A stretch of DNA of 64,000 bases from a virus (IMGVR_UViG_3300029922_000039), one strand, 5' to 3'; counted from the first letter of the stretch, positions 1,656 to 57,578 are shown. The notes: generated by a model not told the origin, from the letters alone. Numbers and translations: made by a program.

Positions 1656-1671
1656 TTACTTCTCCTCTTGT

Positions 1672-2581: not shown

Positions 2582-2766
2582 GCCACCTTCTCATGCACTG
2601 GATAGTCCTCCGTGAACCCGCACTGCCCACAACCAACATGGCACGCACGACGGATATCCACGAAACGATGCACCTGCTCCGGAGGCACCTGCGCGTCAAG
2701 CGTGCGCCATCCAGAGAACTTCAACTCGGGAAACTTCGGGACTTCATAGAACACTATCGTCTTCAT
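2578..2766 (-). CDS. hypothetical protein
   Basis: ATG at 2766 preceded by GGAAGGAGG (MKTIVFYEVPKF...). Confidence 0.5.
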   Translation of the reverse strand: MKTIVFYEVPKFPELKFSGWRTLDAQVPPEQVHRFVDIRRACHVGCGQCGFTEDYPVHEKVA

Positions 2767-2818
2767 CAGGTACCTCCTTCCCATATAGTTCCACGATTCC
2801 GTTGAAATGTCGAGAGAA

Positions 2819-3852: not shown

Positions 3853-3998
3853 AGTATCCCTCCAGAAGCACAAAGAAAAAGATCAGCCAACACGTGCGGA
3901 TTCTGAGAATCAGGCGGCAAGAAAATACCCACCACTATAGCCACCACCGATACCCGAAACCCAATAAACGGAAGATACCCCAAATACGATTTATTCAT
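3813..3998 (-). CDS. small membrane protein
   Basis: 61-aa hydrophobic ORF with SD GAAGGGAG. Confidence 0.45.
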   Translation of the reverse strand: MNKSYLGYLPFIGFRVSVVAIVVGIFLPPDSQNPHVLADLFLCASGGILWAMSDLFLKEIK

Positions 3999-9029: not shown

Positions 9030-9058
9030 TTGACAATTCGCCTCCAATTTTGTATATA
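9030..9058 (+). promoter_or_regulatory. sigma70-like promoter
   Basis: TTGACA, 17-nt spacer, TATATA. The leader contains GCAAGGCAAGGAAAGG. Confidence 0.65.
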
Positions 9059-9092
9059 TGGAGATGCAAGGCAAGGAAAGGGACGAACCACC

Positions 9093-21848: not shown

Positions 21849-22080
21849 CTCTTCTCCCTGAAGTCCGACCTTGAGCGTGCTCAAAGGTGCATTCACTAAG
21901 CGATACTGGTTTTCCGCAGAGGCTACAAAAACCTGACTGACGTTGCCACATGAGCATTTTCCGCTGCTTATAAGCGGCTCGCCCTGCGTCGTTGTTGAGG
22001 CAGATTTCACGCCCCCCTACCTTCTTTACCGCGGTCGGGTTTCGATCGGGCGGCTTGAACCGCTTTCTCACGAGCCTCAC
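21712..22080 (-). CDS. HNH endonuclease
   Basis: CSLCGKPV...FEHAQGRTSGRRDD...CHPRCNQDKGS HNH motifs. GTG at 22080 preceded by GGAGG; TTG at 22104 is an alternative. Confidence 0.7.
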   Translation of the reverse strand: MRLVRKRFKPPDRNPTAVKKVGGREICLNNDAGRAAYKQRKMLMWQRQSGFCSLCGKPVSLSECTFEHAQGRTSGRRDDRVIDENGQPINSICHPRCNQDKGSRHFQPDIPRGFDPDPSFGE

Positions 22081-36283: not shown

Positions 36284-37606
36284 TTATTTCTTGCGGCGTA
36301 CCGAGATTGAGCCCTGATCTTCAGCCCTCATGCCGGGCACGTTGAAAGCGGTCTTGAGGGCTTTGGCAAGCCGGTTGAGTTCCGTCAGATTCGGGCTAAG
36401 AAGTTGCGCCGCCGACTCCAGGGGGAACTTGTCATTTTTCACGGCGCGCAAAAAGTCGATCATCGAGATTTCATCCTCAACGACTTTCCAATTACTGCGC
36501 GATGACTGGCCCTCGATAACCGGAGCGGACGGGGCGATGTAGGTTGGCTGAACGTAAATGTGAGGCACGACCACAGGCGCATCGAATAGCGTCTGCGCCT
36601 TCTCCGTGTCGCCATCTTCCAGTGCGTCACTCACATCAGCCAACTTGATGCGCGCAGCCTCTTCTTCTTGCAGTCGCCGCGATTCAGCCTCTGCCTCTTC
36701 CCGCGCCTTGCGTACCGCCTCCTGGCGCTGACGTTCCATCTCCCTGTCCCACGTAAGGATCTGGGCCTTCACGCTCTTCACGGCGTTCTCAAGGGGGTCA
36801 ATGGCGCTCTTCTTGAGGTCATTGGCATAGGTATAAGAATCGTACAAAATCTTGCGGAACGGATCCAGCAAGGCCAATGTCGTGTCCTTGCGGTCCGTGA
36901 GGATGGTGAGTACGTCGCTGGCCTGTAGGCGCGTCTGCGGCGTCGTGACCTTGATAGAGAGAGCCTTGTCGGAGTCGTTCTTGCATTGAGCGATGATGGC
37001 CTTGATTTCGCCTTCGCGCTCTTGCAGGAGGCTCAGGGCATCAACGGCTGTCACTGGCTCGGTCCACGCGCCCATGACTTCGCCGACAGGCTGGGTGGTG
37101 AGTGCTGTCTGCGCGAGCCGATCCAATTCCTTCTCAACGTAATCTTTCTCCCCCTCTGGCCAGTCGGAGTCCTCCATGACAACTTTGGTGGTCGGATACT
37201 TGGCGGCGGCATACTCGGGAGACATCCTCTCCATAGAATTGGAGCCGTCAGTAAGGGTGGTCTTGGTCAGGAGCGTTTCTGCCACCGGCGCGATGAAGTC
37301 CAACTCCTCTTCGCTCAGTCCGCATTCGACCTCGGCCTTCTTCGGCGCAGGCGGGAGCACGGACGGATCGGCACCAAGGGTTTCGAATGTCCACGCCGAA
37401 TTGCCTTTGATCTGAGAGTTAAAGAATTTCCCCAAAGACTCTGCAAATTTTGCTTCGTCTGCCACTTCGGGCGAAACGTTCTGATAGGCCCGAATCTCTT
37501 TGGTGGACTTGAATTCGAAGAGGAGCTGCCAAGATTCTTCATGGTAGCCGAAGCGACTGAACATACTGCTGGTCACGGGCTGTAGTGCGGAGTATATGCT
37601 TTCCAT
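36284..37606 (-). CDS. KTSC-domain N-terminus fused to a long coiled-coil protein
   Basis: ATG at 37606 preceded by AAGGAAAGGGAA. SSMFSRFGYHEESWQLLFEFKSTKEIRAYQNVSPEV...SLGKFFNSQIKG. Charged coiled-coil near the C-terminus. Confidence 0.55.
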   Translation of the reverse strand: MESIYSALQPVTSSMFSRFGYHEESWQLLFEFKSTKEIRAYQNVSPEVADEAKFAESLGKFFNSQIKGNSAWTFETLGADPSVLPPAPKKAEVECGLSEEELDFIAPVAETLLTKTTLTDGSNSMERMSPEYAAAKYPTTKVVMEDSDWPEGEKDYVEKELDRLAQTALTTQPVGEVMGAWTEPVTAVDALSLLQEREGEIKAIIAQCKNDSDKALSIKVTTPQTRLQASDVLTILTDRKDTTLALLDPFRKILYDSYTYANDLKKSAIDPLENAVKSVKAQILTWDREMERQRQEAVRKAREEAEAESRRLQEEEAARIKLADVSDALEDGDTEKAQTLFDAPVVVPHIYVQPTYIAPSAPVIEGQSSRSNWKVVEDEISMIDFLRAVKNDKFPLESAAQLLSPNLTELNRLAKALKTAFNVPGMRAEDQGSISVRRKK

Positions 37607-37664
37607 GCCTTGATTCCCTTTCCTTGCACTTGCAGTGTACTTCTGCGAGTGCGGGTTGTGCAAC

Positions 37665-43343: not shown

Positions 43344-43601
43344 ATGCCGAGACCCAAGCCACTACCGAAAGCACCCAAGAAGAAGGCCGAATCGCGTGGA
43401 ACCAAAAAAGTTACCTTGGGAAGACTTACTGCCGAAGAGAGAAAAGCCTTCTTCCTTAAGATTGGCTCCGAGGGGGGTACCACTACCCTCGCCAATTACG
43501 GGCCGGACTACTACGTCCGTCTCGCTATCCGTTCCCATCAAGTCAGACGAGAGCGCCGTGCCGCAGCTCTTGCTGCGCAAAGGCTTGGTCCCAGCGCCTG
43601 A
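43344..43601 (+). CDS. small basic protein, probably from a leaderless mRNA (candidate regulator)
   Basis: The ATG is 7 nt after TAGAAT and has no SD. MPRPKPLPKAPKKK... Confidence 0.5.
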   Translation: MPRPKPLPKAPKKKAESRGTKKVTLGRLTAEERKAFFLKIGSEGGTTTLANYGPDYYVRLAIRSHQVRRERRAAALAAQRLGPSA

Positions 43602-43611
43602 CCAGATCACG

Positions 43612-44421
43612 GTGGCGCAAATCGCCGCCGATCTTGGAGTGGAGACTGACCGCATCCAGCCGCTGATCGACCGGGGCTACCTGCGCGTTATGATCGCCGG
43701 CGAGACTCTGGAGACCACCATCGTCGCCCGGCCTCTCCCTGCGGCAATGGCTTGGCTGTCCACAATGTTCGTGCCCCTTCGGATGCGCCCTATGCTGCCT
43801 GCCGGGGAGGTGGCGACCTTCCTCCAGTTGTCGGCGGCTGCATTCCGCTCCTACGCGATCCACTACAACATCCCCGTCTACGACGATCCGGTCTTCGGCG
43901 AACTGATAACCCTAGCATCCCTGTACGCCTTCCAGCAGGCCCTCTACGACGAGCGCAGCGTGACGCGCTACGACCGGCAGACCATGCTCGCCATGATGTG
44001 CAAGAAGAATCCCGTCCTTGGAAGAACCAAATACACGGCCTACAGCAAGAAGATCGAAGCGGAGATCATGCGCATCTCGCACATGGAGGAGCCAGACAGG
44101 ACCATGCGCGCCGTGGCCTTCTGGACGGCCTACAGGGACGCGGAGACGGTCTACAAGTGCCTGGAGGACTACGAGGGGACTGTGCGGGAACTGACGCCGT
44201 GGGATCTGCGCCAGAAGAAAAAGGTAGCCTTGCTCCTCAAGTGGACGGAGATGAAGCGCAAATGGGGAGACACGCCACGGAAAAAGCGCACGAAGATGCG
44301 CAAGGACAAGGGAACGCACAAGCCCGGATGGGTGCCGAGGCCGAAGAAGAAGGTGCGGTGGGGGAAGCGGTACGAGTCGAAGACGAGGAAGAAGTCGGGG
44401 TACTGGACGAGCGAGGACTGA
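43612..44421 (+). CDS. HTH-containing protein with a very basic C-terminal tail (start uncertain)
   Basis: ITVAQIAADLGVETDRIQPLIDRGYL is HTH-like. GTG at 43612 is the first start after the upstream stop; the track ORF begins at 43396. Confidence 0.5.
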   Translation: MAQIAADLGVETDRIQPLIDRGYLRVMIAGETLETTIVARPLPAAMAWLSTMFVPLRMRPMLPAGEVATFLQLSAAAFRSYAIHYNIPVYDDPVFGELITLASLYAFQQALYDERSVTRYDRQTMLAMMCKKNPVLGRTKYTAYSKKIEAEIMRISHMEEPDRTMRAVAFWTAYRDAETVYKCLEDYEGTVRELTPWDLRQKKKVALLLKWTEMKRKWGDTPRKKRTKMRKDKGTHKPGWVPRPKKKVRWGKRYESKTRKKSGYWTSED

Positions 44422-44495: not shown

Positions 44496-44753
44496 CTACC
44501 TCGCCTCACAGAATTCCGGCATGTAGCGGCTGTCGAACTCTTCCGCCGTCATGAAAGTGAAATCGTAAGGGCCACGCACCACATAATACATACCTTCTCG
44601 CGGCTCCGGTTCATCTTTCACCTGTTCAAAAGTGTAGGCATACACCGCTCCCGGCCTATCCTGCACCTCAAAAATGTAGCTCCCTGGGCCTTTGCCCACC
44701 TTCGAGATTCGAGAGGCTCTGATGGAAGTTCGACTGTCAACGAAAACCTGCAT
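44496..44753 (-). CDS. hypothetical protein
   Basis: ATG at 44753 preceded by AAGGAG. Confidence 0.5.
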   Translation of the reverse strand: MQVFVDSRTSIRASRISKVGKGPGSYIFEVQDRPGAVYAYTFEQVKDEPEPREGMYYVVRGPYDFTFMTAEEFDSRYMPEFCEAR

Positions 44754-44780: not shown

Positions 44781-47700
44781 TTATTGCAGAACGCTCGTCA
44801 TGCGATGCCTGCGCCCAGGGAAGGACGGTGCCACCTTCTTCGGCTTCAGGCCGGGAACGTAGCGGCTGATTGGAACTTCCTCGTTCACCGTCTGCTTGAC
44901 GATGTTCGCACGGCGCTCTTCTGGGGTCTGCTTGTGGTGGCCAGTATCCATATAGGTAGCCCCTACCTCTCCGGCAGCCTTCACCGCATTATAAGCATCC
45001 GTAACGGCTACTCCTACGACAATCTGCACCATCGAGTTCGTTACGCGGCTCTGCTGGACCAACTTCTGCGCGTCCTTGGGGTCATGCGTGGCCAGTTCGT
45101 TGAAGAGTTGCGTCAGAGTCTCGACGCCCATACCCATCGAAATATAGTGCAGCGCGTTGAAGAGTGCTTCCTTCGAGACGGGATGCTCTTCCAGCCACTT
45201 CTTCTTCCGGTCTTCCATGGCCGCTTCCGGAGATCCCGACATCTGGTGACGCAGGTGGAGCAGTTCCGAGAGCGCATACCCGGCCAGGCCGAAGCTCGCG
45301 CTGAACCTGCCGATCAGTTTGTACGGCTCGGCGCTCTTGTAATCGGACTTGTAGAGTTCCTGCCACACCGTCCGGTTGACGAGGTTGGCCGTCTTGAACA
45401 TGAAGCCGTGAAGCGACTGCGCAATGCGCATCAGGGTCGTCAGGCGCTGGAATATCGGAGGGTCACTCAACTGATTGCGCGCGGCCATGGGGAGTTCGGA
45501 GGGCCTGCCGCTCCCGGTGGTCCAGTTTGCCGCAGCCAGTTCCATGCGGCGCACGTCCTCTGGTCCATAGCCCTTGGTCGCCATGTTGTCCATTTGCTCG
45601 TCAGTGAATCCGTAAAGGTCGGTGAGCTTGCGGCGCAGTACGGCGCTCTTGGGGTCCTTGACCAGTTCCGGGTAGGCGTACTTCTCAAACCACAGACGGC
45701 CAGCCCCGGACGCAACCACGCGGCTCCAGTTCATGATGGCGGTGAAACCGTTGTAGTCCAGCATCTTCTGGTCCCACCCTCCGCCATTCATTCCGTATTC
45801 CCGCATCCAAGCCTGCTTGATGTAGTTGACCATGGCGCCACAGTCTACCGCGTTCTTGCGCATCTCACGCGGATTGATCGCAGAGCGAATGAACGACTCC
45901 GCCAGGCTGCGCGTGTTGGTCGCCAATACCGTCTTGGCAAGGTGAAGCGGGAGTTTGATGGGGCTCAGGTGCATCTTGCTCAGAATCAGCCAGCGGTTCG
46001 CCCAGCGCAGGGCAATGCGGTCCGAGTCATGCAGCCGGGCCGGGTCCAAGTCGGAGGTGATGATATGGTTCACCATCGAGCGGGTGCGGCTGTCCGGCAA
46101 GGCGTCGATCAGCGGGTCTGTCTTCTCGCGGAACTGTCCATGGACTTCGGCGGAGGCCAACTTCTCTGAGATTTCATTGACGTAGCGATCAAGAACCTTG
46201 CGGTCGCGGCCATACATCGGGATCTCGAACTCGCGGGCACGCTCCACGTTGCCTGCGAGGCGAATGCCGCGCGCGTTCTTGTCGAAGAACAGTTGCGCCT
46301 TGATCTTGGAAATACCCTTCTGCTCGGCCACCTTCTCGATCAGAGCTTCGCGGCGCTCATCGCCCTTGGGCATCCTCATGATGTCACCCAAAGAGGCAAC
46401 TACCTTGTCGCCTTTGGCGTCCGTGATGATGAACTTCTCTTCCCAGTTGTAGATGCGCGGCCAGTAACGCGGGTCATCGGCGATCTTCGAGTATGGCACA
46501 TCGCTACGCTTGCCCTTCTCGTCATAGAAAACAACGGCCATCCCGGCATCGGCCAGGCGTTTGCGCACGGTAGCCGTGAACTTACGGAATTCAGTGACGG
46601 CTTTATCGATACGCGGGTCGGTCGTTGTCTCTTGTCCCTCGACCACCTTGGAAACCGTCCTCAGATCATTCGGGGTGAGTTTGTTCTTGGAGATAATCTC
46701 CTCGACCATGCCGCCGAACTCTCCTCGGTAGTTCCCAGATCGGATGTCATAGTCGATCAGGCGGCGCTTCAGTTCCATACCCATCTTTTCGTGGCCAGCA
46801 TCCCTGCAAATCTGCTCTACGGCTCGGTCACCAGACATTCCGAACATCCAGAGGCTCGACTTGACGAGGTGCGCGGCGGAGCGACCAGTGCCCTTCATGC
46901 CGTCGAACCATAGAAGAGCGTCGTTCTCAAGGTCGCGGGTCCGGCGGTCGATGGCTTCCTTCGGATTCTCCCCGGCGGCCTTAGCGGCGCGCCCGGCGTG
47001 CTGTGCTTCAGCCTGAAACGCTCCTTGATGAGCGGCAATGGCTTGGGACTGCTCCGCTGGCAGGCTCTTGGTACGTCCCATCATGTCTTCCCACGCAGAC
47101 TGAGCGAGAGAATTCAGGTGCGCTTCGGGGTCTTCATCCTTCGGCCCCTGATAGAGTTTCTTGCCCTGCCCCTTGTACTTCATGGGCTGGTGCATAGCCT
47201 TCTTAGCGTCGGGGATCTCGAACTCGCTGATCGGAGTGAACTTCGCCTCGTCCGTCGTGCGCTCGAAGTCTGCCGCTTCGGGGGCGTATTCGTTACCCTG
47301 GTCGTACTCAAGCATCTCTTCTGGGATGCCTGCCGCCTCGCGCAGGTTCTTCGACAACTGGGTTTCGTTGCGTTCGCCATAGACGGCCGCCTTGAGTGCC
47401 CTCATGCGCGGCAGAACCTTGGTCCCCAAGAGCTTGATCTCCGGCAGGGCATCGGTGGTCAGGAAGATATTGGCAACTCCCGACTGGCGCCCATAGCGGT
47501 CAGTGCGGCTCGTAGCCTGCTCCAGCATGATCGAACTCCACGGCGGAGTGATGAAGATACCCATGCGCGGCTTGTTGCCCACCTTGTCGTGCGCGCTGGC
47601 GCCGACGCCGCCAGCGGCATAGGTCGCATACAGCGCATCCTTCTCGCCGCTCTGGAAGCCTTCCAACTCTTCAGCGCGCAACTGGTTCGCGTCCCCGGCG

Positions 47701-50700
47701 AAGATGCCGATCTTGTCGCCGAATTGCGCGCGCATCGCCTTCACCATATCCGGCAATGGCGGGAGCATTGCATTGATCTGCTTGCCCAGGTCGCCCGGCA
47801 GACGGTTGATGAAGTCCATCCCTTCTTCCGCGGCAGAACGGTACTCAGTGAAGAGAACCGGGCTCCACCCATCCTTGATCGCCTTCGCCGCCAGTTCGAT
47901 CGCATGTGGCAACTTGGCCGCCTCAAGGTAGCGTTTCAGGTAGATCGCCTCGTGGCCGGCCGCAGCCTTGATCAGACTCGACATCTTGTTGCGCTGGAAG
48001 GCGGCACGCGCCATCGTGAACGCCTTGCGGATGCTGCGCACCCCGGCGCGAACCTCTTCAGTCTGCGGAACAAGTACGACGTGGGCCTCGGTGCCTTCCA
48101 TGTCCTTGTGAAGTTGCTGCCACTGCCCGCGTTCGATAAGCTGCTGCCGCAACTTCTCCAACTTGCGCGGCGCGGAACCGCCGCTGTAGCTGTTCGGACC
48201 GCTCTCCACCAGACCAAACTGGCTTGCCCATCCCGTGAACCCTCCATGCGGCCAGAGTCCCAACTTGTGCATGTAGCCGATTTCGAGAGTGGTGCTGTAC
48301 GGCGTGGCGCTCGAATAGATCACCTTCTTCGCCGCGTGTCCCAGCATAATGACAGCCTTACCCTGCTCGGAATCCGTCCACTTGCGCGCCTCGGAACTCT
48401 CATCAAAGAGAACAAAGTCCCATGGAACTGACAAGACGCTGCGGTTGCCGCGAATGCCTGCGTAGGTCGCTGCGTACATGCCGGTCTGCATCTCTTCCAT
48501 ATTGCTTGGGAGGTCGTTCACGTCCACGCCAAAGCGCCGGGCAACGTCTTTGAGTCCGTCTGCTTCGTGAATAAGGTTTTGGCTGCGCGTTACCCACAAT
48601 CCAACCTTGTCGCCACTCGTTCCGAGAAGGTGGCTGCAAAGTGCTGATCCTAAAAAGGTTTTTCCAGTACCCGCACCGCTAGCAAGAATCGTCGCGTCGT
48701 ACTGCTGCAACGCCGAAATAACGCCATCGGCAACTTCCGGCTGCCCAGGGAAGATGAGCAAGTCGCGCAGGTCGGTAGCAAGGCGCTGTGTCGGCGGCGG
48801 TGTTCCCTTCGGCAAGCCAAGGTCCTCCACATGACCACGCCACTTGTCAGGATCGACGACCGGCGTGCCGCGTGGTCGCTCCGGCGATTGGAGCTTTGCC
48901 GCCTTTACTTTTGCGAGGGGGTCTGCTGCCGGTTTGGCAATGGCCCCTCGTCCGGAAGTTCGTGAACCGCCGGGGGCCGCATGTTCCCTGTCGGCCGATC
49001 CGGCTCCGCCATGAACTTCTCCAGCATCGCCCGGTTCTCGAACCCCAGAAGTTCCATGAGATACGCTTCTCGATCGTGCATTTTCCCCTCCCAGTGCAAT
49101 CGCCGTGGGGTCGCCCATCACCTGCTGGACGGTCGCGGCCTGTGCTGGCGTGGTTGGTTCGTTCTGCGTCGGCATCTCGCTCAGTCCGTGGACGAGTTGG
49201 ATGACGCTGGTATCCTTCGGTTCAGGCTTCGACCCTATAATGCCTGTTGCGCCGCGGAGTTTGTCCTCAATGCCGTTCAATTGGCCGCGCAAGAGAGCCT
49301 GGCGGCGGGGATCTTGCTCTCGCTTCAGTTCATCCTCAAGAGACTTCGCCCGGCGGGACAGATCGACCATCTCGCTCAGGCTCGGCTGGAACAGTTTCTT
49401 GCCGCGCTTCATCTGAATGCGGAGGTAGACTTGCTGCTCACCGCGGACTTGCAGGATCTCCCATCCCTTGATGTCGGCACCACGCTCCTCGATCACGTCC
49501 AAAGCGTCGGCCATGTTCTGCTTGTGGATTACCTTCGAGTTATCTCCTGGCTTCGGGCCGGAGCGGATCACCTTGGCATCACGCGGAACCTCGACGCTGC
49601 CGGTATCCATGGCCTGCTTGCCCATCTTCTCGATCGCGTCCACGTCCAGACGGGTAGTGAGTGGTTTGCGCTCGGTGCGGGTCCAGTCGTACCAGTTGTC
49701 AAACATGGCCTTGAGTTCCGGGGACCCTTGCGCCAACTTCTTGCCGGTGACCGCATTGTAGACCGACTGCATCGAACGCGAGAGGGTTGCGAAAACCTTC
49801 TCCAGTTTGCCGCGCCGAATGCCGCCATCGTAGTGATACCGCTCAAAAGCCTGGGCAAACAACTCTTCCTGTTTTTCCGTCCACTCTTCTCCTGGCTTTG
49901 CGCCGACAAAAGCATTGGCCACGCTCTGATCTGCCGGGCTGAGGTATTGGCGAACATAATGCGCCATCTCATGAATGAAGGTGGAAGTATCGGCAGTGTC
50001 GCAAAGGCGAATAATCGCCCGCCCATCTTCCAAAATCTGCGTGTAGCCGCGCTGGCCGCCCTTCTCCTTGCCGCCGAAAGCGATAGTGAGACGCCGATTG
50101 CCTAGCAACTCTTCGAGCTTCATCCCAAGAGCCTGCGGCAAGATATGCTCCATCATGTCGCCGACCGCCGCCGCTTCTTCGGGGGAGAGGTTCGGGTGAC
50201 TCTCCAGCGCACGGCGCAGGTCCTGCACGGTGCGCGGTCCCTCTGGCAATGCCACTTCCACGCTGGACGAATCCGGCGCGGTGTCGGCTATCACGGTCTC
50301 ATGTGAGACTGGAACCTCAACCGGCAACTCGCCGCGCGCGTCCTCAATAACAGTCTTCATGGCGTCGGACAGGCCAGCAACAGAACCCCACTCTTCGGGG
50401 ATAACGTTCAACCCGTACTTCGAAGCGATCTCGTCGGTGAATACGTCTGCCGGGTGCTCCGCGCCAAACATCGAAGCCTGGACGCCAGTAGCGCGGTCGG
50501 CGTATTTCGCCAGCATCTCGGTGTACTTGGCCGGCGACTCTTCGAGCGCCATGGCAAGCGCCTCAACTCCGGCATGAACTGGCTTGTGGAGCGACTGGCC
50601 ATCGAAGTCTGTGATATCCAAGTCACCTTGGACTCCAGTATCCTTCTTCCCTTGGTATCGCTCCGGGTGCAGGCCCTTCTCGATCAGCGAATCCCTGCCG

Positions 50701-53700
50701 GAGCCCTTTGAGACTTCTCCCGGCTTGCCCTGCAAATGATGCAACGATGCCGCGGCGTCTTCCAGTCGGGTCAACATGCGCACTGCGTCGGAGTTCATCG
50801 ACGCCAGATTCCAGTTCTCCCCGGCGTTCCGCATCTTGACGAAGAAGATTCCGGCGCGCGTCAGGCTGTTCTTCGTGGACGGGCTGATCCCTTCGAGTGA
50901 GGTGGGGTCGCTGACTGTGAGGCCGACCAGCATGTTCTCGAAAAGGCTCTTGGCCTTATCCGTCAGATCGCCCTTGTCGTCTCCTGTCTGGATCACGTAC
51001 TCGGCCAATTGGTTCGGCGCAATGATGCCGGAATCCACCATCAACTGAGCGATATCGGCGGAGCGCGCGCGCATCGCCTGCCGCGCTGTGAGTGTGCGGG
51101 TCTTGCCTGTCTTCTTGTCTACTTCGGTGCTGGGCATTGAGCTGACGATGTTATCCAGGCGGTCGAGGTAGTCCGTCGTGAGCAGCCGCGACATAGCCGC
51201 GCCCATTTCCACTTCATTGATTCCGTAGGCAGGGGGGCGGTTGAGGTCCAGACCAAGCATCGACCACTGGTGTTCGTCTACCGGCGCATCGATGCGCTTC
51301 ATCAGGATAGGGTTCCGGTACTTTTCAATCTCGGCTGGGTCGATCCCGAGCGACTGCGCGCGGCGCAACAGTTCATCGCGGTAGCGCGCGTATTCCTTGG
51401 GGTTCTTGATGAGAGCGGTCAGGATCGAGAGCGTGCGCCCGTTGCCGGAAATGACGTGGCCGCTCTGGTCGATGATGCCAGGACCCTCCATTGTCGTCAC
51501 GCCATTGCTGAGAACCTGGTCGAGATCGAGATTGGAGACACGTTCCTCCACGCCAGTCTGAGCCTGCTTATCGCTCTTGTAATCGCGCGGTTGCCCATTC
51601 TGGTTGTATCCATCCCGGTACTCATAGGTCATCGGCATGTGCGAAGTCTGCGCGTCTGTGGCCTCCATCACAACATAGTGTGACGGGATACCTTCCCTGT
51701 TCTGAGGCGACACAACACGGGTAGCGCCGCCGATCGACATTGGGTACGCCGGGGTGGCCGCTGGTGGAGGGGGTGGCGGATTGATAACCGACTGAGCGCC
51801 AGCCACCACTGCATCCGCCTTCTTTTGTGATTCATCTGCTGCTGCTTGAGCAGCTTCGGCTTGCGCCGTGTTTCCCCCAGCCCTTAAATTCTCTGCCGCG
51901 TTTTGCAGGTCGTGCGCCTGATCGGTAAACTCGATCACCTGCTTTGCGGCTTTCTCGCGCGCTCCCTCGATATCCACATGGAAGGACGCGGCGGTGTCGT
52001 CGGCAATCTTCCGGGCAACATGCTCAGATGCGGCGGCGCGGACACGCTGCATCCGTCCAATAAAATCCCGCATCTTCGGCGTGCGAAGATCGTTGCGTGT
52101 GTCCTTTACGGTCTTCTCGATTTTGAACAGGTCGTCCATGCTGTCAACGGGACCAAGGCCCAGGTCGCGGGCATCCTGAGTCAAGCCGGCGGTGGCCTCG
52201 ACAATCGGGCGAAGGTTCTGCGGACCCTCCGGCGACTGCGCCTCAGTCATCAAGCCTGTCAGTTCTGCCCTGTGCTTCGCTGCGGCGTCAGCCGCCATAT
52301 TGGTAGCCAGATCAGTTTCCATGTCCCGCTGGATCTGGTCGCGGTACTCCATCAGCATCTGGGCTTGCTGCCGGCTCCGCAACTGGTCCTCGATGTTTGC
52401 GAGGTCGATGTGCTGTCCAGAGGCAATGCGCTCCGAAAGGTCTGGAGTCAGGAATGCCTTCAACTTCTCCGGTTTGGCGCGTAGGTAGTCGGCCAGCACC
52501 GCGCTGCGGTCTTCTGGCGCCAGCGAGTCCCATGACTTGCCCATGGACTTCTCGGTGTGTTCGTTCAGATCGCGGTGCGTGGCCGGGTCTGCCTGGAGAG
52601 CGGAGTCCATGTTTGTCCGAGCAATGATGAGCTTGGCCAGGCCAGAGTGGAAGTCCGCGCCGGGCGCCAATGGCTGCTCATTGCCGGTAGAGTGCCGTTC
52701 CAGATAACGCTTCGACGCTGCATCGACCATCGCTGCATCTCGCACGCGGTCGGCATGATCCTGATAGGCGGGGGTATCGCGGAACGCCTGCCATGCTTCG
52801 GGATGGAACCGCTCAAGCCAGCGCGCGGCGACGGTCTGCCGGGAGAGGGGAAGCATCGAGAACGAGGTCTTGAATCGATCTTCTGTGAGTTCCTGAACCT
52901 TGGACTCGGCGGCGGCAACTTCCGGGGCTGGGGCAGGCAATGGCTCCCCGGCGGCAGTGCGGCGCTCGACTACGGGAATGGCGGTTGACTCTGCCGTCTC
53001 TGGCTCATACCGCTGGCCGGGTTCGCGCTCGGTGGTCTGCTTGAGACCGCGTGTAGTCTGTCCCGACCGACCCTCTTCAACGGGAACTGCCGGAGCCTCT
53101 ACCGCGGCTTGTTTGGCGGCCTCGGCGCGGTCCTTCTCGCCCTGTACCTTGGAGGCAGTCACCTTGTCTTCGGCGGCCTTCCGAGCGGCAGACTCGCGCT
53201 GCATGGCTTCGTGCTGTGCGGCGGCGCGGCGCGCCTTGGCGACAAGGGTTTTCCGAACAAGAGCCTTTGCTGCTTCAAGGCGTTCCGCGGTGACGCGAGT
53301 CCCGAGTCCAGCATCTACTGGTGATTCATCTGGGGATATTTCTATCCCTCCGGCGGTATTCTTCTTTACCTTCTCGCCTAGCGGAGACTTGCCATACTTG
53401 GCCCTGATACGCTTGACTTCCGCATCCACCTTCTTCTTGAATTCAGGATCGGCATCTTCCATCGACCGATACAGAACATCTGCCTTCTGCTCATCGGTCA
53501 ACTTTACGAACGGCTTCTTGTAGAGGTCTTCCGAAGGCTTATTGAAGTCCCAGGTGCGAACGCGGTCCTTGACGGCTTCCGACCCGGCGTGCCCGTAGTG
53601 CATCCCTACAACGACAAGAGCGTTGCCGAACAGATCGCCCCACTTCTCCGCAGAGTCACCTTCTCCTGTTGCCGAAGACGCCGACGCATCGGCCACGCCA

Positions 53701-54500
53701 GAAACACCACTAGAGATCAACTGCCCCTGATACGACATGCCAACCGCCTTGCCGATTTGGCCCGGCATGAGGGGTATCGTGGCGAGGGTGTACAGGTTCT
53801 CAATGCTTGTCTGGTTCTCGATGGCCTTGACTGCGTGAGTGGCGAAACGAGATCCCCAGTTCTTGCTATTCGGATCAAATAGCGACTGGAAAGCCTTCGT
53901 TCCGGTTACGTTCAAGCGCGCCTTGCCTGCCGACTCTATCGTTTCGAGGGCCTGCTTGGCGTACTTGTCACCCTTGGCGGCCTGCTCCTGAGTGGCCTGC
54001 ATCACCACATCTTGAACTTCTTTGTCTGCCGGATTCGGAACTCCAGAAGTTGCCGTGCCGCCGCCGAACAGCAATCCCCCCATGAACCCAGGGAATGACT
54101 TGACGATATCTTTGGCGTCCTTCCAGTTGGGCTTAGGAGCGTTTGCCTTCGCGTTCTCCCACCACGACGGTTCGTGTACGGTCGATGGGGCCGCGTGAAA
54201 GTCGTCGATCCACTTCTGCGCGTCATCCTTGTTGGCGAAGTCCATGCCAGACCCGCGCACCTTACTGAACGGGACATGATAGGTCTTGTCGCCACGGCGC
54301 ATGGCGTAGGTGCCTTCGCCTTGTCCGGTGCTGGGGTCGATGGGGTTGTCTTCGACGGTAGAGAGATGATCGACAGGAGGAGTGGGAGCTTCGGCCGGCT
54401 TCGTATCGACAACTGCCCAAGGGTCGCTCGGCGGCTGCTTAGTGGCAGTCGGCGGAGGTGCTGGCGTCGTGCTGACAACTGCCCATGGATCCTGAGCCAT
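44781..54500 (-). CDS. giant multi-domain (polyvalent-type) virion protein: ParB-like segment, HExxH metallopeptidase motif, SF2 helicase
   Basis: 3239-codon uninterrupted ORF. QPRDY...SGNGRTLSIL, HEMAH, GAGTGKT, DESS and QATSRTDRYGRQ motifs. Its start overlaps the upstream stop (TAATG). Confidence 0.8.
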   Translation of the reverse strand: MAQDPWAVVSTTPAPPPTATKQPPSDPWAVVDTKPAEAPTPPVDHLSTVEDNPIDPSTGQGEGTYAMRRGDKTYHVPFSKVRGSGMDFANKDDAQKWIDDFHAAPSTVHEPSWWENAKANAPKPNWKDAKDIVKSFPGFMGGLLFGGGTATSGVPNPADKEVQDVVMQATQEQAAKGDKYAKQALETIESAGKARLNVTGTKAFQSLFDPNSKNWGSRFATHAVKAIENQTSIENLYTLATIPLMPGQIGKAVGMSYQGQLISSGVSGVADASASSATGEGDSAEKWGDLFGNALVVVGMHYGHAGSEAVKDRVRTWDFNKPSEDLYKKPFVKLTDEQKADVLYRSMEDADPEFKKKVDAEVKRIRAKYGKSPLGEKVKKNTAGGIEISPDESPVDAGLGTRVTAERLEAAKALVRKTLVAKARRAAAQHEAMQRESAARKAAEDKVTASKVQGEKDRAEAAKQAAVEAPAVPVEEGRSGQTTRGLKQTTEREPGQRYEPETAESTAIPVVERRTAAGEPLPAPAPEVAAAESKVQELTEDRFKTSFSMLPLSRQTVAARWLERFHPEAWQAFRDTPAYQDHADRVRDAAMVDAASKRYLERHSTGNEQPLAPGADFHSGLAKLIIARTNMDSALQADPATHRDLNEHTEKSMGKSWDSLAPEDRSAVLADYLRAKPEKLKAFLTPDLSERIASGQHIDLANIEDQLRSRQQAQMLMEYRDQIQRDMETDLATNMAADAAAKHRAELTGLMTEAQSPEGPQNLRPIVEATAGLTQDARDLGLGPVDSMDDLFKIEKTVKDTRNDLRTPKMRDFIGRMQRVRAAASEHVARKIADDTAASFHVDIEGAREKAAKQVIEFTDQAHDLQNAAENLRAGGNTAQAEAAQAAADESQKKADAVVAGAQSVINPPPPPPAATPAYPMSIGGATRVVSPQNREGIPSHYVVMEATDAQTSHMPMTYEYRDGYNQNGQPRDYKSDKQAQTGVEERVSNLDLDQVLSNGVTTMEGPGIIDQSGHVISGNGRTLSILTALIKNPKEYARYRDELLRRAQSLGIDPAEIEKYRNPILMKRIDAPVDEHQWSMLGLDLNRPPAYGINEVEMGAAMSRLLTTDYLDRLDNIVSSMPSTEVDKKTGKTRTLTARQAMRARSADIAQLMVDSGIIAPNQLAEYVIQTGDDKGDLTDKAKSLFENMLVGLTVSDPTSLEGISPSTKNSLTRAGIFFVKMRNAGENWNLASMNSDAVRMLTRLEDAAASLHHLQGKPGEVSKGSGRDSLIEKGLHPERYQGKKDTGVQGDLDITDFDGQSLHKPVHAGVEALAMALEESPAKYTEMLAKYADRATGVQASMFGAEHPADVFTDEIASKYGLNVIPEEWGSVAGLSDAMKTVIEDARGELPVEVPVSHETVIADTAPDSSSVEVALPEGPRTVQDLRRALESHPNLSPEEAAAVGDMMEHILPQALGMKLEELLGNRRLTIAFGGKEKGGQRGYTQILEDGRAIIRLCDTADTSTFIHEMAHYVRQYLSPADQSVANAFVGAKPGEEWTEKQEELFAQAFERYHYDGGIRRGKLEKVFATLSRSMQSVYNAVTGKKLAQGSPELKAMFDNWYDWTRTERKPLTTRLDVDAIEKMGKQAMDTGSVEVPRDAKVIRSGPKPGDNSKVIHKQNMADALDVIEERGADIKGWEILQVRGEQQVYLRIQMKRGKKLFQPSLSEMVDLSRRAKSLEDELKREQDPRRQALLRGQLNGIEDKLRGATGIIGSKPEPKDTSVIQLVHGLSEMPTQNEPTTPAQAATVQQVMGDPTAIALGGENARSRSVSHGTSGVREPGDAGEVHGGAGSADREHAAPGGSRTSGRGAIAKPAADPLAKVKAAKLQSPERPRGTPVVDPDKWRGHVEDLGLPKGTPPPTQRLATDLRDLLIFPGQPEVADGVISALQQYDATILASGAGTGKTFLGSALCSHLLGTSGDKVGLWVTRSQNLIHEADGLKDVARRFGVDVNDLPSNMEEMQTGMYAATYAGIRGNRSVLSVPWDFVLFDESSEARKWTDSEQGKAVIMLGHAAKKVIYSSATPYSTTLEIGYMHKLGLWPHGGFTGWASQFGLVESGPNSYSGGSAPRKLEKLRQQLIERGQWQQLHKDMEGTEAHVVLVPQTEEVRAGVRSIRKAFTMARAAFQRNKMSSLIKAAAGHEAIYLKRYLEAAKLPHAIELAAKAIKDGWSPVLFTEYRSAAEEGMDFINRLPGDLGKQINAMLPPLPDMVKAMRAQFGDKIGIFAGDANQLRAEELEGFQSGEKDALYATYAAGGVGASAHDKVGNKPRMGIFITPPWSSIMLEQATSRTDRYGRQSGVANIFLTTDALPEIKLLGTKVLPRMRALKAAVYGERNETQLSKNLREAAGIPEEMLEYDQGNEYAPEAADFERTTDEAKFTPISEFEIPDAKKAMHQPMKYKGQGKKLYQGPKDEDPEAHLNSLAQSAWEDMMGRTKSLPAEQSQAIAAHQGAFQAEAQHAGRAAKAAGENPKEAIDRRTRDLENDALLWFDGMKGTGRSAAHLVKSSLWMFGMSGDRAVEQICRDAGHEKMGMELKRRLIDYDIRSGNYRGEFGGMVEEIISKNKLTPNDLRTVSKVVEGQETTTDPRIDKAVTEFRKFTATVRKRLADAGMAVVFYDEKGKRSDVPYSKIADDPRYWPRIYNWEEKFIITDAKGDKVVASLGDIMRMPKGDERREALIEKVAEQKGISKIKAQLFFDKNARGIRLAGNVERAREFEIPMYGRDRKVLDRYVNEISEKLASAEVHGQFREKTDPLIDALPDSRTRSMVNHIITSDLDPARLHDSDRIALRWANRWLILSKMHLSPIKLPLHLAKTVLATNTRSLAESFIRSAINPREMRKNAVDCGAMVNYIKQAWMREYGMNGGGWDQKMLDYNGFTAIMNWSRVVASGAGRLWFEKYAYPELVKDPKSAVLRRKLTDLYGFTDEQMDNMATKGYGPEDVRRMELAAANWTTGSGRPSELPMAARNQLSDPPIFQRLTTLMRIAQSLHGFMFKTANLVNRTVWQELYKSDYKSAEPYKLIGRFSASFGLAGYALSELLHLRHQMSGSPEAAMEDRKKKWLEEHPVSKEALFNALHYISMGMGVETLTQLFNELATHDPKDAQKLVQQSRVTNSMVQIVVGVAVTDAYNAVKAAGEVGATYMDTGHHKQTPEERRANIVKQTVNEEVPISRYVPGLKPKKVAPSFPGRRHRMTSVLQ
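50294..50312 (+). repeat. copy 4 of the hairpin motif (CGGTCTC ATGT GAGACTGG)
   Basis: Inside the giant gene. The G-T position is compatible with wobble pairing on the plus strand. Confidence 0.5.
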
Positions 54501-56884
54501 TACCTTTCAGCCTTTCCGGTTTTCAAATAGTCCTGCATCTTTTTCAAGAGTCCGATCTGTTTTGGAGAATACATTGTATTTCCAGAATCCGCTTGGCCTT
54601 TCTTGCCATCCCCTTCATTCGTTATCCACCCTCTGATATATGCGTCATAGGTTGGACCGTTCCGGTCTTTGGAGCCGTTCACATCGTCCCACCATGTATC
54701 GTGTCGCTCCTGTCGTTTAAGTTCCTGAGGGGTAAAATTCTGCATGAATTCGTTGCGTAAACGACTCCAATATGGATCGCTTCCCATGCCGTGCATCAAA
54801 TCGCCATAAATGGCCTGCTTTAAGAGCGATGGGTTGGATTTTAGTTTGTCGTCATAGATTTCAAGGACATTCTTACCCGGTATAGGCGAAGGGAAATCCT
54901 TCATGCCCGCTTCGGTTGGCGACCAAAACTCTAGCCCACCTCTTTCTTTAAGGCCGCGTTCGGCGCGCTTTCCAGTGGCGAATACAACAGACGTGTTACC
55001 TGCGTTGAAATTTTTGGCAAGTCCAGGGTATTCCTGAAGCACTTCATGTAAAACAGGGTTTATAGCTTGTTTACTCTCATGGCTAGGGAACCTCCTTCGG
55101 TCTGTTTCCTGCCTCTCCGGGCCGACCTGCACGGGTTTTCCATTCCGTAATGTCCATTGCTGCCCATTAGCAAAGGTCGTTATATTGCCATCGCGGAGAT
55201 GTTTAACCGCCTCAGGAGGCAAAGCACCCGCACCCCCCGGAGACGAGGCCGGGGGAGCAGGCGTTGCGGCTGCCTGTGGCGATACAGGCGCAGTGCCGCT
55301 TCCCGTTGGGGCTGCCGGTCCAAACAGAGGGGCCATACGGCTTGCTGCCGCGCGCCTCGATTCCGGTGTCAGCGCCGTTTCTTTCGGACCACTTACCACG
55401 GCCCTGATTTGAGTCTGAAGATCGCGCTCTAGGTTCTTGAGTTGGTCTTCCGTCACACCCCCAGAATATTTTCCATGGCTGTCTGGCTTCCCGACTTGCC
55501 CGCGATTGTGATACTGATACCCGTTATCGCCCTGGCCAACGATATTCGCCAGCGCATCGTCTAGGGTGGGCATCGTCTTGTACTGCGGCAATCCCCGCAG
55601 ACGGTCGATCGCCGCCGTCAGAACGTCGTTGTCGAACTGCTTTGGATCAGAGACGGCATTGTGGGCAATGACCCCGGCCTGCTGCTGCCCGGCGCCCTCC
55701 ACCTTGCGATGAGCCAACGACTCGCGCTCGTCCTCCGGCATGTCTGGGTATTCTTCTTTGTAATAGGCAAGAGCCTTCTGATACGAACCCTCCATGCCTT
55801 TGCCGCCACCAGCGCCCGTGCCTGCCTTCGGAGGCGCACCCAAACGATGGCCGCGCGCGGTCTCTTCAGCCGTCCACTGCTCGAATGATCCCTTGTATCC
55901 ACCCTTGACGGCCGTATCGTAGTCAGTACGCTTTTCTTCCGTTGGCGTAGGTGCTTTCTGCGCAGGCTGCCAACCTTCCGGCTCATTGCCGGGAGTGTAG
56001 TATTCCTGGCTTTTGCTGTCTGGCGACTGGTAGAGATGAGCCGCCCCTGTACCGCGCCGCTGCGATTCGTCCATAATCCGACGCGCAGAATTGTATTGGT
56101 CGACAACTTCTTTCTGCGCCGGAGTCCTGTTCGCTTCCGGGATCTTCTCGTATTCCGAAGCCTGCCCGCCCAACTTGTATACCGTGCCCTGAGCATCGGT
56201 TACGGCCTTCTTGACGGAAATTTCTGCGGATTCAAGATCTGCGCCGGCTACTTGGTTCTGCGTTCCCTGCTGCTGCGCCTTGCGCCTCTGTTGCGCCTCT
56301 GGAGTATTCAGCATGGCGATCTGTCCGTATACCGGAGGGCCAGCCTGCTTGGCTACCTGATACCACGCCTGAGCCTTCTCGTAGGGCGTCGAGTTCGGGT
56401 TCGTCAGAACCGCCTGCGGAGGAAGTTGGGGCTGATTCTTCTTCCCCTTGCCCTTCTTCTCGCCGTTCATCTGCTCGATATGCTGGCCGTAGAAGTCTTG
56501 CAGAGCCCCCCACGATCCATCCACAGAGGACTTGGCTGCTTTGTACGAATCCGAGCCGGGGTCCACCCCGGCCTGCGTCAACTGGTAAAGCCGCACCGCA
56601 TCCTGGTTGTAGGAGTTCTGGAGGTCGTCCGACTTCTTTTTGAGCTTCATCACCTGCGCCGCCTGGTGATAGGCCCGGCCCTGCATGAAGCCGCGGAGAA
56701 TGCCATCGGCGACCGTAGCGATCGCTCCCGACTTCTTCACCGCACCATTGATCTCTGGACCCTGCTGCGGGAGTGGAGACGGCATCGCCTGGACAGGTTC
56801 TGGCATGACCGGGGCCTGATACGGTGCCGGGTTCGACGGGTCGTATGCTTGGAACTTTCCGGGATTTTCTTGCCCTGTAGCCAT
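54500..56884 (-). CDS. large virion-associated protein of unknown function (794 aa)
   Basis: SD GGAGAGG. Pro/Gln-rich N-terminus. Directly coupled to the giant gene. Confidence 0.6.
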   Translation of the reverse strand: MATGQENPGKFQAYDPSNPAPYQAPVMPEPVQAMPSPLPQQGPEINGAVKKSGAIATVADGILRGFMQGRAYHQAAQVMKLKKKSDDLQNSYNQDAVRLYQLTQAGVDPGSDSYKAAKSSVDGSWGALQDFYGQHIEQMNGEKKGKGKKNQPQLPPQAVLTNPNSTPYEKAQAWYQVAKQAGPPVYGQIAMLNTPEAQQRRKAQQQGTQNQVAGADLESAEISVKKAVTDAQGTVYKLGGQASEYEKIPEANRTPAQKEVVDQYNSARRIMDESQRRGTGAAHLYQSPDSKSQEYYTPGNEPEGWQPAQKAPTPTEEKRTDYDTAVKGGYKGSFEQWTAEETARGHRLGAPPKAGTGAGGGKGMEGSYQKALAYYKEEYPDMPEDERESLAHRKVEGAGQQQAGVIAHNAVSDPKQFDNDVLTAAIDRLRGLPQYKTMPTLDDALANIVGQGDNGYQYHNRGQVGKPDSHGKYSGGVTEDQLKNLERDLQTQIRAVVSGPKETALTPESRRAAASRMAPLFGPAAPTGSGTAPVSPQAAATPAPPASSPGGAGALPPEAVKHLRDGNITTFANGQQWTLRNGKPVQVGPERQETDRRRFPSHESKQAINPVLHEVLQEYPGLAKNFNAGNTSVVFATGKRAERGLKERGGLEFWSPTEAGMKDFPSPIPGKNVLEIYDDKLKSNPSLLKQAIYGDLMHGMGSDPYWSRLRNEFMQNFTPQELKRQERHDTWWDDVNGSKDRNGPTYDAYIRGWITNEGDGKKGQADSGNTMYSPKQIGLLKKMQDYLKTGKAER

Positions 56885-57017: not shown

Positions 57018-57578
57018 TCAAGCAAACGCTGCTCCCACGGTAGCAGCATCGCTACCGAGAGAGGTCAGCGCACCCAACTGAGCACCTTTCTGTTGGATTT
57101 GCTGGCTCCCTAGTTGCCCGAGTCCCTGATTCGCAGAGTTATACCCAGAAATGGCCGTACTGGCAGATGAGATTGATTCACCTGTTCCTTGACCGGCGAG
57201 TTGGGCGAGAGCATTGTAGCTGCCCGTTACTGCGCCAGACGTGATATCCCCGATTTTCGCCCCTTGCGCCACGTCCGCCTGCTCCAGAGCGAGATTCTTC
57301 TCGCCTCCAGACGGCGCAGTATTCATGATGTTCTGCTTGGCGCCAGCCGTGGCTGCTGAAATCTGCTGCGCCTGCGGGGCAACGGCACGAGCGATAGCAT
57401 ACGGGTCGCCCGAAGCAAGCGTTTGATACTGATTCTCGGCAGCGACGAAGCCAGGGTTTGACTCATTGAAGAGGGTGTTTGCGTTTTGATTTTGTTGCTG
57501 CGCAATGGCTACAAGGGCGCTACTATTGTCGGCCTCTTGTTGCTGCACGCTGCTGGACAAACCGCTGGATTTTCCCAC
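57018..57578 (-). CDS. Gln/Ala/Gly/Ser-rich protein (internal-virion-protein-like composition)
   Basis: GTG start preceded by AGGAGTG. 186 aa. Confidence 0.5.
   Translation of the reverse strand: MGKSSGLSSSVQQQEADNSSALVAIAQQQNQNANTLFNESNPGFVAAENQYQTLASGDPYAIARAVAPQAQQISAATAGAKQNIMNTAPSGGEKNLALEQADVAQGAKIGDITSGAVTGSYNALAQLAGQGTGESISSASTAISGYNSANQGLGQLGSQQIQQKGAQLGALTSLGSDAATVGAAFA

Follow-up and report, generated by a model that had tools for sequence, protein, structure and literature searches.

What task might a phage entrust to a single protein of 3239 residues encoded at the end of its late genes? The question is raised by the viral sequence IMGVR_UViG_3300029922_000039, analysed here as a stretch of 64,000 nucleotides (the window), in which one minus-strand gene (44781..54500) encodes a protein of about 356 kDa and is the last large gene of what reads as the late (virion) operon. 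An earlier note, made from the sequence alone, had taken the product for a polyvalent protein delivered with DNA, like DarB of phage P1. The present analysis upholds a giant of the polyvalent type, with ParB and superfamily 2 (SF2) ATPase domains confirmed, but not a strictly DarB-like one, since no methyltransferase was found and its ParB domain is DdrB-type. The protein is probably packaged in the virion and ejected into the host by a temperate podovirus of ~88 kb; its packaging, ejection and location, and all of its enzyme activities, are inferred from the comparisons set out below.

Polyvalent giants, of which very few have been studied, are believed to reach the host ahead of all other phage weapons. 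DdrB-ParB, MPTase and SNF2-type ATPases have been described as hub domains of phage polyvalent proteins encoded beside virion genes (Iyer, Burroughs, Anand, de Souza & Aravind 2017, J Bacteriol 199:e00245-17; PMC5512222).

Integrity of the giant gene

An open reading frame (ORF) of such length could reflect an assembly fusion or read-through of several ordinary genes. The length is the sole point in favour of an artefact, together with shadow ORFs of up to 477 amino acids (aa) on the opposite strand of this GC-rich stretch, and the explanation is scarcely credible. The ORF listing and translation give one minus-strand frame of 3239 codons with an ATG start, as the earlier note had read it. Given the base composition of the ORF, the chance of meeting no stop over this distance is about 10^-48, and 100 and 84 stops interrupt the remaining two frames of the strand. 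GC content is 0.72 at third codon positions and 0.44 at second positions, the pattern expected of genuine coding sequence. The exact 3239-aa sequence is recorded in 30 blocks of a public collection, and at least 24 contigs encode the identical protein, drawn from three assembly pipelines: JGI, ENA (MEGAHIT) and Logan. Seven homologues (P0001–P0007; 3161–3517 aa, 49–67% identity) are co-linear along the length of the protein with the frame unbroken. The ORF is confirmed as real and is not an assembly fusion.

The ATG shares one base with the TAA of the upstream 794-aa gene (TAATG at 54500; ...GAAAGGTAATGG...), an overlap reported before and read directly here, and GAAAGG, a purine-rich Shine-Dalgarno-like stretch, lies just 5' of it. 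Every motif quoted in the earlier note was located at its place: DPWAVV at residues 4 and 26, YNQNGQPRDY at 965 and GHVISGNGRT at 1014 (about 51.46–51.61 kb), HEMAH at 1510–1514, GAGTGKT at 1942, FDESS at 2032, SSATP at 2063 and QATSRTDRYGRQ at 2328.

A nucleotide search of the gene against 50,697 phage records gave no match, tblastn of the protein against phages and against plasmids gave one partial match in each and nothing more, and no record of the phage collection searched matched above about 10% of the protein. The giant protein and its neighbours had no match in NCBIfam, and phmmer of the whole protein against the PDB found none.

Enzymatic domains

The order of domains along the protein and its relatives is fixed: an N-terminal domain, DdrB-ParB, a helical domain, an HExxH domain, an SF2 helicase and a C-terminal module of the internal-virion-protein type, all encoded here on the minus strand. 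When eight tiles of the giant protein were compared with Pfam at an expectation value (E) of 10 or less, only the ParB and helicase segments were matched. The check by Pfam profiles and structure prediction that the earlier note had advised was productive for these two segments; it gave no zincin-family match, and the AlphaFold2 (AF2) models found no fold match in the PDB at E<=1e-3.

The ParB/sulfiredoxin-like segment, first recognised by its motifs, is a DdrB-like domain of that superfamily (residues 935–1070; 51291..51698). It matches PF18763 with E = 7.6e-15 in the whole protein and 1e-15 in the tile, at 55.6 bits against a gathering cut-off of 27.6 and over profile positions 3–120 of 121. 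The GNGR motif (residues ~1019–1022) is kept as (S/G)GNxR in the seven close homologues and is lost in a more distant relative, P0008. In the AF2 model the region has a predicted local distance difference test score (pLDDT) of about 85–94.

The SF2 helicase or translocase (residues ~1900–2460; 47121..48803) carries motifs I (GAGTGKT, residue 1942), II (DESS, 2033), III (SAT, 2064) and VI (QxxxRxxRxG, 2328), all conserved across homologues. The reading of these motifs as a helicase was confirmed by PF13872 (AAA_34, the Strawberry-notch-type N-lobe), which scores 28.8 bits in the whole protein and 33.3 in the tile, narrowly over its gathering cut-off of 27. Among 13 distant relatives, ResIII is matched in 13 and DEAD in 11. 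A Sbno-specific C-lobe did not emerge, with no match to Helicase_C_4 or wHTH and generic Helicase_C in just two of the 13 relatives; the domain is therefore filed as SF2, with the Sbno-type model as the nearest, and not as a Sbno member. At 0.67–0.80 identity per 50-aa window, the helicase segment is the most conserved part of the giant protein. Two close homologues, P0003 and P0007, have GKN instead of GKT in Walker A.

Between these two domains lies a zincin-like segment of gluzincin type (residues ~1480–1600; 49701..50063), with HEMAH at 49959–49973. A profile of residues 1400–1640 found the domain in 37 sampled proteins, 36 of which keep HExxH. When 18 sequences were aligned (mean column identity 23%), only T1507, H1510, E1511, H1514, L1520, E1546, E1553 and Y1581 proved to be unchanged in all of them. 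The AF2 model places HExxH and the downstream Glu motifs on consecutive helices (pLDDT about 75–80), and the gluzincin-type signature agrees with the description of polyvalent-protein MPTases (PMC5512222). In P0007 the first His of HExxH is lost (EEVAH) and the equivalent of E1553 is Lys; such a paired loss would fit residues that form one site, and hints at a coordinated inactivation of the peptidase site in one lineage.

Family models did not recognise this segment. The HEMAH tile had no Pfam match at E<=10, and the 18 relatives gave isolated sub-threshold matches to Reprolysin_2/3, ATLF (lethal factor) and LPD39 (E = 0.03–0.09). The best PDB profile matches, to oligopeptidase A (M3), align on its active-site HEFGH helix and are not significant (E = 0.076 and 0.3). 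For residues 880–1700 a PDB profile search found nothing significant, and Foldseek of the AF2 model against the PDB had no match at E<=1e-3, the model being multi-domain with a predicted template modelling score (pTM) of 0.39. Because no zincin model reaches significance, the assignment is not demonstrated, and of the earlier claim of a zinc peptidase it is the HExxH...E...E signature, invariant in 18 sequences, that stands; a significant match in Pfam, PDB sequences or folds does not accompany it. The segment is a probable zincin.

The C-terminal module

It had been suggested that the ~800 C-terminal residues might hide a new anti-defence activity. They hold instead, by profile, PHROG, Foldseek and hidden Markov model (HMM)/hhalign comparison, a module of the internal-virion-protein type (residues 2500–3239, core about 2550–3100; 44784..47003). 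The module is mostly helical and ends in a basic tail (…GRRHRMTSVLQ) that is strongly basic across the close family. Searched against 1.84 billion representative proteins, its profile found 556 representatives at E<=1e-3 and 67 at E<=1e-30. In every match inspected the module was C-terminal, both in giants of 2000–5700 aa and in proteins of about 700–1500 aa.

Several comparisons relate the module to annotated internal or structural virion proteins. PHROG annotation of 40 mid-size carriers, scored over whole proteins, gave eight labelled "internal virion protein with endolysin domain", up to nine labelled "virion structural protein" and one labelled "DarB-like antirestriction". The AF2 model of the module (pLDDT 64, pTM 0.65) had 42 Foldseek matches in BFVD at E<=1e-3. 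These include Internal protein D of Bordetella phage BB8, an internal virion protein of Vibrio phage VP2, internal core proteins of Ralstonia phage RSB3 and Pseudomonas phage PAO1_Ab05, and a structural protein of Pseudomonas phage KPP25, as well as the C-termini of many proteins labelled LPD, DNA methylase, MuF-C, ART-PolyVal, SLT or lysozyme. For Internal protein D and the internal core proteins the Foldseek E is 4e-6 to 4e-4, with template modelling (TM) scores of 0.3–0.42.

The same module is found by sequence in KPP25 ORF088, a 2009-aa "structural protein" encoded directly after the structural genes on the same strand (HMM E = 1.4e-12, hhalign 97%), and in CRP-810 gp34 (HMM E = 2.8e-30, hhalign 98%). 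With phiKMV gp37 the HMM comparison is not significant and hhalign gives 65%; gp15-class controls are not significant by HMM and fall below 1% by hhalign. The module profile had no significant match to SU10 gp24, T7 gp14/15/16, phiKMV gp35/36 or phi24B gp48, so no homology to these proteins is claimed. A search of the PDB with the module profile gave nothing significant, and the only PDB profile match of the mid-size family is 9sfn_G, a 1337-aa "Internal virion protein" (E = 0.27). On sequence and predicted structure, the module belongs with the internal, core or ejection proteins of podoviruses; a relation to the T7 gp16/phiKMV gp37 class in particular is likely but not secure.

Gene order and the late transcription unit

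The genome beyond the window was read on contigs carrying identical genes, which yields a genome of ~88 kb. Its source is most likely a temperate, short-tailed phage (podovirus) with a portal and adaptor of the SU10 type. A tyrosine integrase in the window (29780–30934, minus strand; phrog_1, E = 2.4e-45) implies the temperate lifestyle of this podovirus-like genome. In outward order the late genes run from SU10_portal through two SU10_adaptor proteins (PF24175, 29.2 bits against a cut-off of 27) to genes for proteins of 944, 385, 170 and 1354 aa, and then 268, 186 and 794 aa, followed by the giant. The portal and adaptor beyond the window bear out the earlier placement of the gene in a virion block, amid internal-protein-like and tail genes, but the immediate upstream neighbours in the window (794, 186, 268, 1354 and 170 aa) have no match in Pfam, PHROGs or NCBIfam, so that this placement was originally a guess.

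Directly upstream of the giant gene lie a translationally coupled gene for a 794-aa protein (54500..56884, minus strand) and a gene for an Ala/Gln/Gly-rich protein of 186 aa (57018..57578, minus strand). Ejection-protein genes are ordered as a 14-like, a 15-like and then a larger 16-like ORF (PMC8954989). The giant is likewise the last and largest of a 14-like/15-like/16-like cluster, downstream of the adaptor and of large tail-region genes, and the 186-aa and 794-aa proteins are candidate partners in the gp14 and gp15 positions by their size and order. The order 186 aa, 794 aa, giant recurs in all related loci that extend far enough (L001, L006, L025 and L027–L031), and the N-terminal ~530 residues of the 794-aa protein are conserved and always encoded directly upstream of the giant gene. 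Comparable arrangements are seen elsewhere. The late operon of coliphage SU10 ends with an internal virion protein, a putative DNA injection protein, a 551-aa gene and a 1473-aa gene, and in Rhodobacteraceae phage LS06-2018-MD07 tail proteins, an internal virion protein and a hypothetical gene precede a giant gene.

On the other side of the giant gene follows an 85-aa ORF (44496..44753, minus strand), which has an AAAGGAG ribosome-binding site of its own; next comes a convergent gene (43396–44421, plus strand) that marks the end of the late transcription unit. Recombination and replication genes begin about 1.5 kb downstream of the giant gene on the same strand; along the minus strand come a MazG-like pyrophosphatase, RecT, two exonucleases, a DnaB with a putative intein, an integrase and a nucleotidyltransferase. 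The closeness of MazG-like, RecT, exonuclease and DnaB genes would suit a protein that stays out of the virion, made in the infected cell as a cytoplasmic anti-defence or recombination/replication factor and encoded at the late/early junction, and neither MuF nor any other known head-incorporation domain was found in the giant. This is nevertheless quite improbable. Because the 85-aa ORF and the convergent gene close the unit, the giant gene lies outside the RecT/MazG early block, and by its position it closes the late (virion) unit. It is also translationally coupled to the conserved 794-aa gene, and its module is common to annotated internal and structural virion proteins. The relative P0008 bears an SLT cell-wall hydrolase, which would be useless in the cytoplasm, and DdrB-ParB is restricted to phage-type polyvalent proteins, whose domains are often found beside virion structural genes (Iyer et al., PMC5512222).

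A helicase-module pair conserved across the family

The architecture of the family was examined in the 150 best matches to a profile built from helicase-bearing giants, and the sample is biased accordingly. All 41 sampled module proteins of at least 2000 aa have the same helicase directly before the module, with a median gap of 130 aa; the HExxH domain is present in 35 of them and the post-ParB domain in 28. Three shorter proteins of 1400–1530 aa (P0039, P0064 and P0067) consist of helicase and module alone. Accessory domains vary: among 13 distant relatives, a 2H/Acb1-like domain occurs in three, ART-PolyVal in two and GGDEF in one. P0008 shares ParB, the HExxH domain, helicase and module at 26–29% identity and adds an N-terminal SLT, and in P0014 a 2H/Acb1-like domain (residues 2407–2511) lies between helicase and module. 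As judged from these sequences, fixed hubs with shuffled accessories form the pattern typical of polyvalent proteins, and the helicase-module pair is unusually constant.

This constancy raises a more specific idea. Helicase and module might act together as a DNA-import motor tethered to the ejectosome, pulling the 88 kb genome into the cell with host ATP. Once ejected, the module would serve as a hub in the cytoplasm or at the inner membrane, or dock at the end of the trans-envelope channel, with ParB and zincin as accessories, regulators or processing devices, and the motor would replace the transcription-driven pull of T7 and N4. Such a role would account for a helicase directly upstream of the module in 41 of 41 sampled relatives of at least 2000 aa, for the existence of proteins comprising just the two, for a pair that stays constant while ART, GGDEF, 2H and SLT vary, and for the high conservation of the helicase segment. 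The C-terminal part of T7 gp16, moreover, binds DNA and is implicated in the transcription-independent entry of the first ~850 bp (PMC8954989). Against it stand the Walker A GKN of two close homologues, which replaces GKT, and the bias of the sample towards helicase-bearing giants. Anti-restriction or protein stripping is the role usually ascribed to the SNF2-type ATPases of polyvalent proteins (PMC5512222). The module occurs without a helicase in 63 of the 76 proteins of 700–2000 aa, and therefore works without one. An import motor is on balance unlikely, albeit less so than a protein that never enters the virion.

Proposed function

Virion packaging followed by ejection as a polyvalent protein is the account that we favour as the probable one. 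The giant protein would be made late, as the last of the 186-aa, 794-aa and giant trio, in the place held by genes 14, 15 and 16 in T7. Stored in the head, it would leave through the tail either before the DNA or along with it. The C-terminal ~550–740 residues, the internal-virion-protein module, would be the part for ejection and assembly, while the upstream domains would be cargo working in the host cytoplasm on or near the entering genome. This cargo would comprise a DdrB-type ParB domain, binding or hydrolysing nucleoside triphosphates or acting as a nuclease; a zincin-like HExxH domain, probably cutting the polyprotein or a host target; and an SF2 translocase or helicase of double-stranded DNA. 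A polyvalent protein is recognised by at least two unrelated catalytic or effector domains, and here a DdrB-ParB and an SF2 ATPase occupy one ORF together with a conserved HExxH domain. It is also phage-encoded amid late or virion genes, and here the SU10-type portal and adaptor lie upstream, with integrase, RecT and DnaB elsewhere in the genome.

A number of observations weigh against this account. The case for packaging is indirect, for the giant protein and its full-architecture relatives alike, and draws here on the C-terminal module and the gene order; the zincin-like segment is only a probable member of its family. The PHROG labels of the mid-size carriers apply to whole proteins, and the match may lie outside the shared module. 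The Foldseek matches in BFVD compare predicted structures, with low TM-scores of 0.3–0.47 and large root-mean-square deviations, and the AF2 model of the module has no PDB match by Foldseek at E<=1e-3. With T7 gp16 the module scores only about 3 bits by HMM, which is not significant, and 5.8% by hhalign, and SU10 gp24 and phi24B gp48 likewise fail to match. No family was found for the neighbours of 794, 186 and 1354 aa in Pfam, PHROG, NCBIfam, the PDB or annotated phages, and the gp14/gp15-like roles of the first two are proposed from size and order. Lastly, a hydropathy scan of the giant protein found no transmembrane-like segment (19-residue maximum 1.16), and Pfam scans of the protein and its tiles found no SLT, lysozyme or other peptidoglycan hydrolase domain.

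Comparison with known systems

The closest parallels are the phage-type polyvalent proteins. Like them, the giant carries in one chain a DdrB-like ParB, an HExxH MPTase-like domain and an SNF2-related SF2 ATPase, is encoded beside virion genes, and has relatives that swap in ART-PolyVal, GGDEF, 2H and lysozyme/SLT domains. Unlike in them, no MuF, DNA methylase, ArdC-N or named LPD domain was detected here, the zincin part reaches no Pfam model, MPTase-PolyVal included, and the giants sampled end in an internal-virion-protein-type module directly after the helicase.

In P1, DdrB combines ParB and MPTase and DarB combines methylase and helicase, and both are head-packaged proteins of the antirestriction type (PMC5512222). 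DdrB gives its name to the ParB type found here and DarB carries an SF2 ATPase, and head packaging would be a further likeness if the giant is packaged as we infer. P1, however, is a myovirus whose functions are split over several proteins. A methylase-helicase of the P1 DarB type was rejected for the giant protein, as neither the whole sequence nor its tiles matched a methyltransferase family in Pfam, PHROG or NCBIfam, and without such a domain DarB-style cis-methylation is unsupported. The label "methyltransferase" on the match in phage LS06-2018-MD07 was also set aside: it belongs to a giant gene there, and the match covers residues 1308–1596 of the query, including the zincin-like part.

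T7 gp16 and phiKMV gp37 are, like the giant, the last and largest products of a small/medium/large trio after tail genes, with a helical C-terminal part and a basic tail (T7 gp16 tail: PMC8954989). The Foldseek matches to Internal protein D and internal core proteins and the hhalign value for phiKMV gp37 may point the same way. The giant is about 2.5 times longer than this class, with roughly 2000 residues of enzymatic domains; it has no SLT and no predicted transmembrane helices, and its similarity to T7 gp16 is not significant. An N-terminal SLT like that of gp16 is present in the relative P0008 and not in the giant itself. Such a transglycosylase is not universal in the gp16 class, as P22 and Sf6 have none (PMC8954989). 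Among cultured phages, Pseudomonas phage KPP25 and Roseobacter phage CRP-810 carry the same C-terminal module at the end of their structural genes, in proteins that are shorter; CRP-810 gp34 (839 aa) has room for little beyond the module.

The virion RNA polymerase of N4 (gp50, about 3500 aa, the third schitovirus ejection protein) is, like the giant, a multi-domain enzyme of about 350–380 kDa. Two smaller ejection proteins leave the podovirus head before this packaged 383-kDa protein, whose loosely connected domains pass through a ~35 Å channel like "beads on a string" (PMC13434306). The polymerase also contains an MPTase-like domain (PMC5512222). The core of the giant, in contrast, is ParB and SF2 helicase. 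No RNA polymerase family appeared in any scan, and the idea of a cryptic polymerase was set aside because the DFDGQ at residue ~1290 lies in a poorly conserved stretch.

A further parallel is gp47 of Stx phage phi24B, a polyvalent protein of 2811 aa detected in virions by proteomics (bioRxiv 10.64898/2026.04.10.717836). It too is a giant polyvalent protein encoded by the last late gene of a temperate podovirus and is a proposed ejection protein. It differs in belonging to an LPD1, LPD5, LPD38 and MuF-C family, with no significant match to the helicase or module of the giant.

Other segments of the protein and other genes

The extreme N-terminus holds the duplicated short repeat DPWAVV(S/D)T.PA (residues 4–15 and 26–37; 54390..54491). 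Both copies described earlier are present, but the repeat is lineage-specific: P0006 has one copy, and P0001–P0005 bear instead FKIPV/FKVPV-type repeats, two to three times. These repeats could be a docking or processing signal. A conserved N-terminal domain (residues ~190–400; 53301..53933) is found near the N-terminus of 18 sampled relatives, and the SLT transglycosylase of P0008 (residues ~115–250) overlaps the start of the region matching it. An Ala/Glu/Arg-rich low-complexity region (residues ~400–930; 51711..53300) is conserved only in closer relatives. A large-database search with residues 1–930 returned nothing, low-complexity word matches having probably filled the candidate list. A helical 'mid' domain after ParB (residues ~1080–1400; 50301..51263) is conserved in 30 sampled relatives. 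The pre-helicase region (residues ~1620–1900; 48801..49643), conserved in 21 relatives, comprises a small alpha/beta domain (residues ~1640–1700, pLDDT about 85) and a Gly/Pro/Arg-rich linker. No family could be assigned to any of these four segments.

The 794-aa protein has 63 homologues, mostly of 550–720 aa, which share its first ~530 residues. Its extra C-terminal ~260 residues are lineage-specific and weakly match an unannotated stretch of the uncultured phage MW202753 (28% identity, E = 5e-7). A profile of the family found nothing significant in the PDB.

The same genome holds what its sequence marks as a second polyvalent-type domain in a separate gene. A 699-aa ORF (9030–11129, plus strand), amid small plus-strand genes, has ~190 C-terminal residues that match internal segments of giant-phage-protein PHROGs (E down to 4e-63). 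The profiles of these PHROGs have 1537–3925 positions and some are labelled "DNA methyltransferase"; they include phrog_5143, which is also matched by the ParB region of the giant. Outside the window, before the portal, contig L007 (17737–18963) encodes a 278-aa homologue of the Acb3 family, directed against cyclic oligonucleotide-based antiphage signalling systems (anti-CBASS), and a RyR-domain protein, between a 712-aa gene and the portal.

Among the remaining genes, the DnaB-like replicative helicase (32538–35174, minus strand) is longer, at 878 aa, than its 481-aa counterpart in a related phage. The ~405 additional residues separate ...LSDLRE|C (residue ~408) from ...VHN|SGQIEQDADV (residue ~815), in a conserved DnaB motif; this insertion shows features characteristic of an intein, probably one that carries a homing endonuclease. 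In a 459-aa protein (36284–37663, minus strand) an N-terminal KTSC domain (PF13619, E = 7.5e-10) is followed by a C-terminal half that resembles an exonuclease, and this fusion is kept beside RecT in the related phages L001 and L006. The last ~70 residues of a 917-aa protein (19257–22010, minus strand) resemble the K1-lyase C-terminal domain PF24146, below the cut-off (E = 3.7e-4), which suggests a tailspike or fibre with an intramolecular chaperone, distant from the main structural block. ARAGORN found no transfer RNA gene over the whole window.

Some related contigs differ in size. L008, L009 and L021 (~125.7 kb) carry the same giant gene and the same window-start genes as L007 and L020 (87.9 kb). 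The longer versions diverge after a 157-aa HAD-like gene, where a Phage_stabilise-domain gene replaces the PG_binding_3 gene and its neighbours; they may represent a variant with a larger genome, a concatemer-like assembly product or a mosaic relative. As to the host, a search returned a single binned contig from an Acidobacteria metagenome-assembled genome, a weak hint that the host is possibly an acidobacterium.

Implications for podovirus biology

The combination of domains seen here was already described by Iyer et al., and for giant ejected enzymes N4 provides an established case and phi24B a proposed one. The giant protein is not strictly DarB-like, is not a virion RNA polymerase, and is not a demonstrated member of a curated zincin or Sbno family. 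What is new is the assignment of its C-terminal third to an internal-virion-protein module; the description of a large uncharacterised family with a fixed architecture, with giants of at least 2000 aa in at least 41 clusters (50% identity) and 556 module representatives; and a specific, testable idea on the helicase-module pair. Candidate residues for mutation are K1947 of Walker A, H1510, E1511 and H1514 of HExxH, E1553, and R1022 of ParB.

If the giant is no import motor, the locus remains a well-delimited case of ejected effectors, from a group of soil or peat phages that has no cultured member. Were the unlikely motor to prove true, it would add a third route of podovirus genome entry beside the transcription-driven route of T7 and N4 and the passive or pressure-driven one, and would bear on the long-standing question of how podoviruses finish the entry of their DNA.

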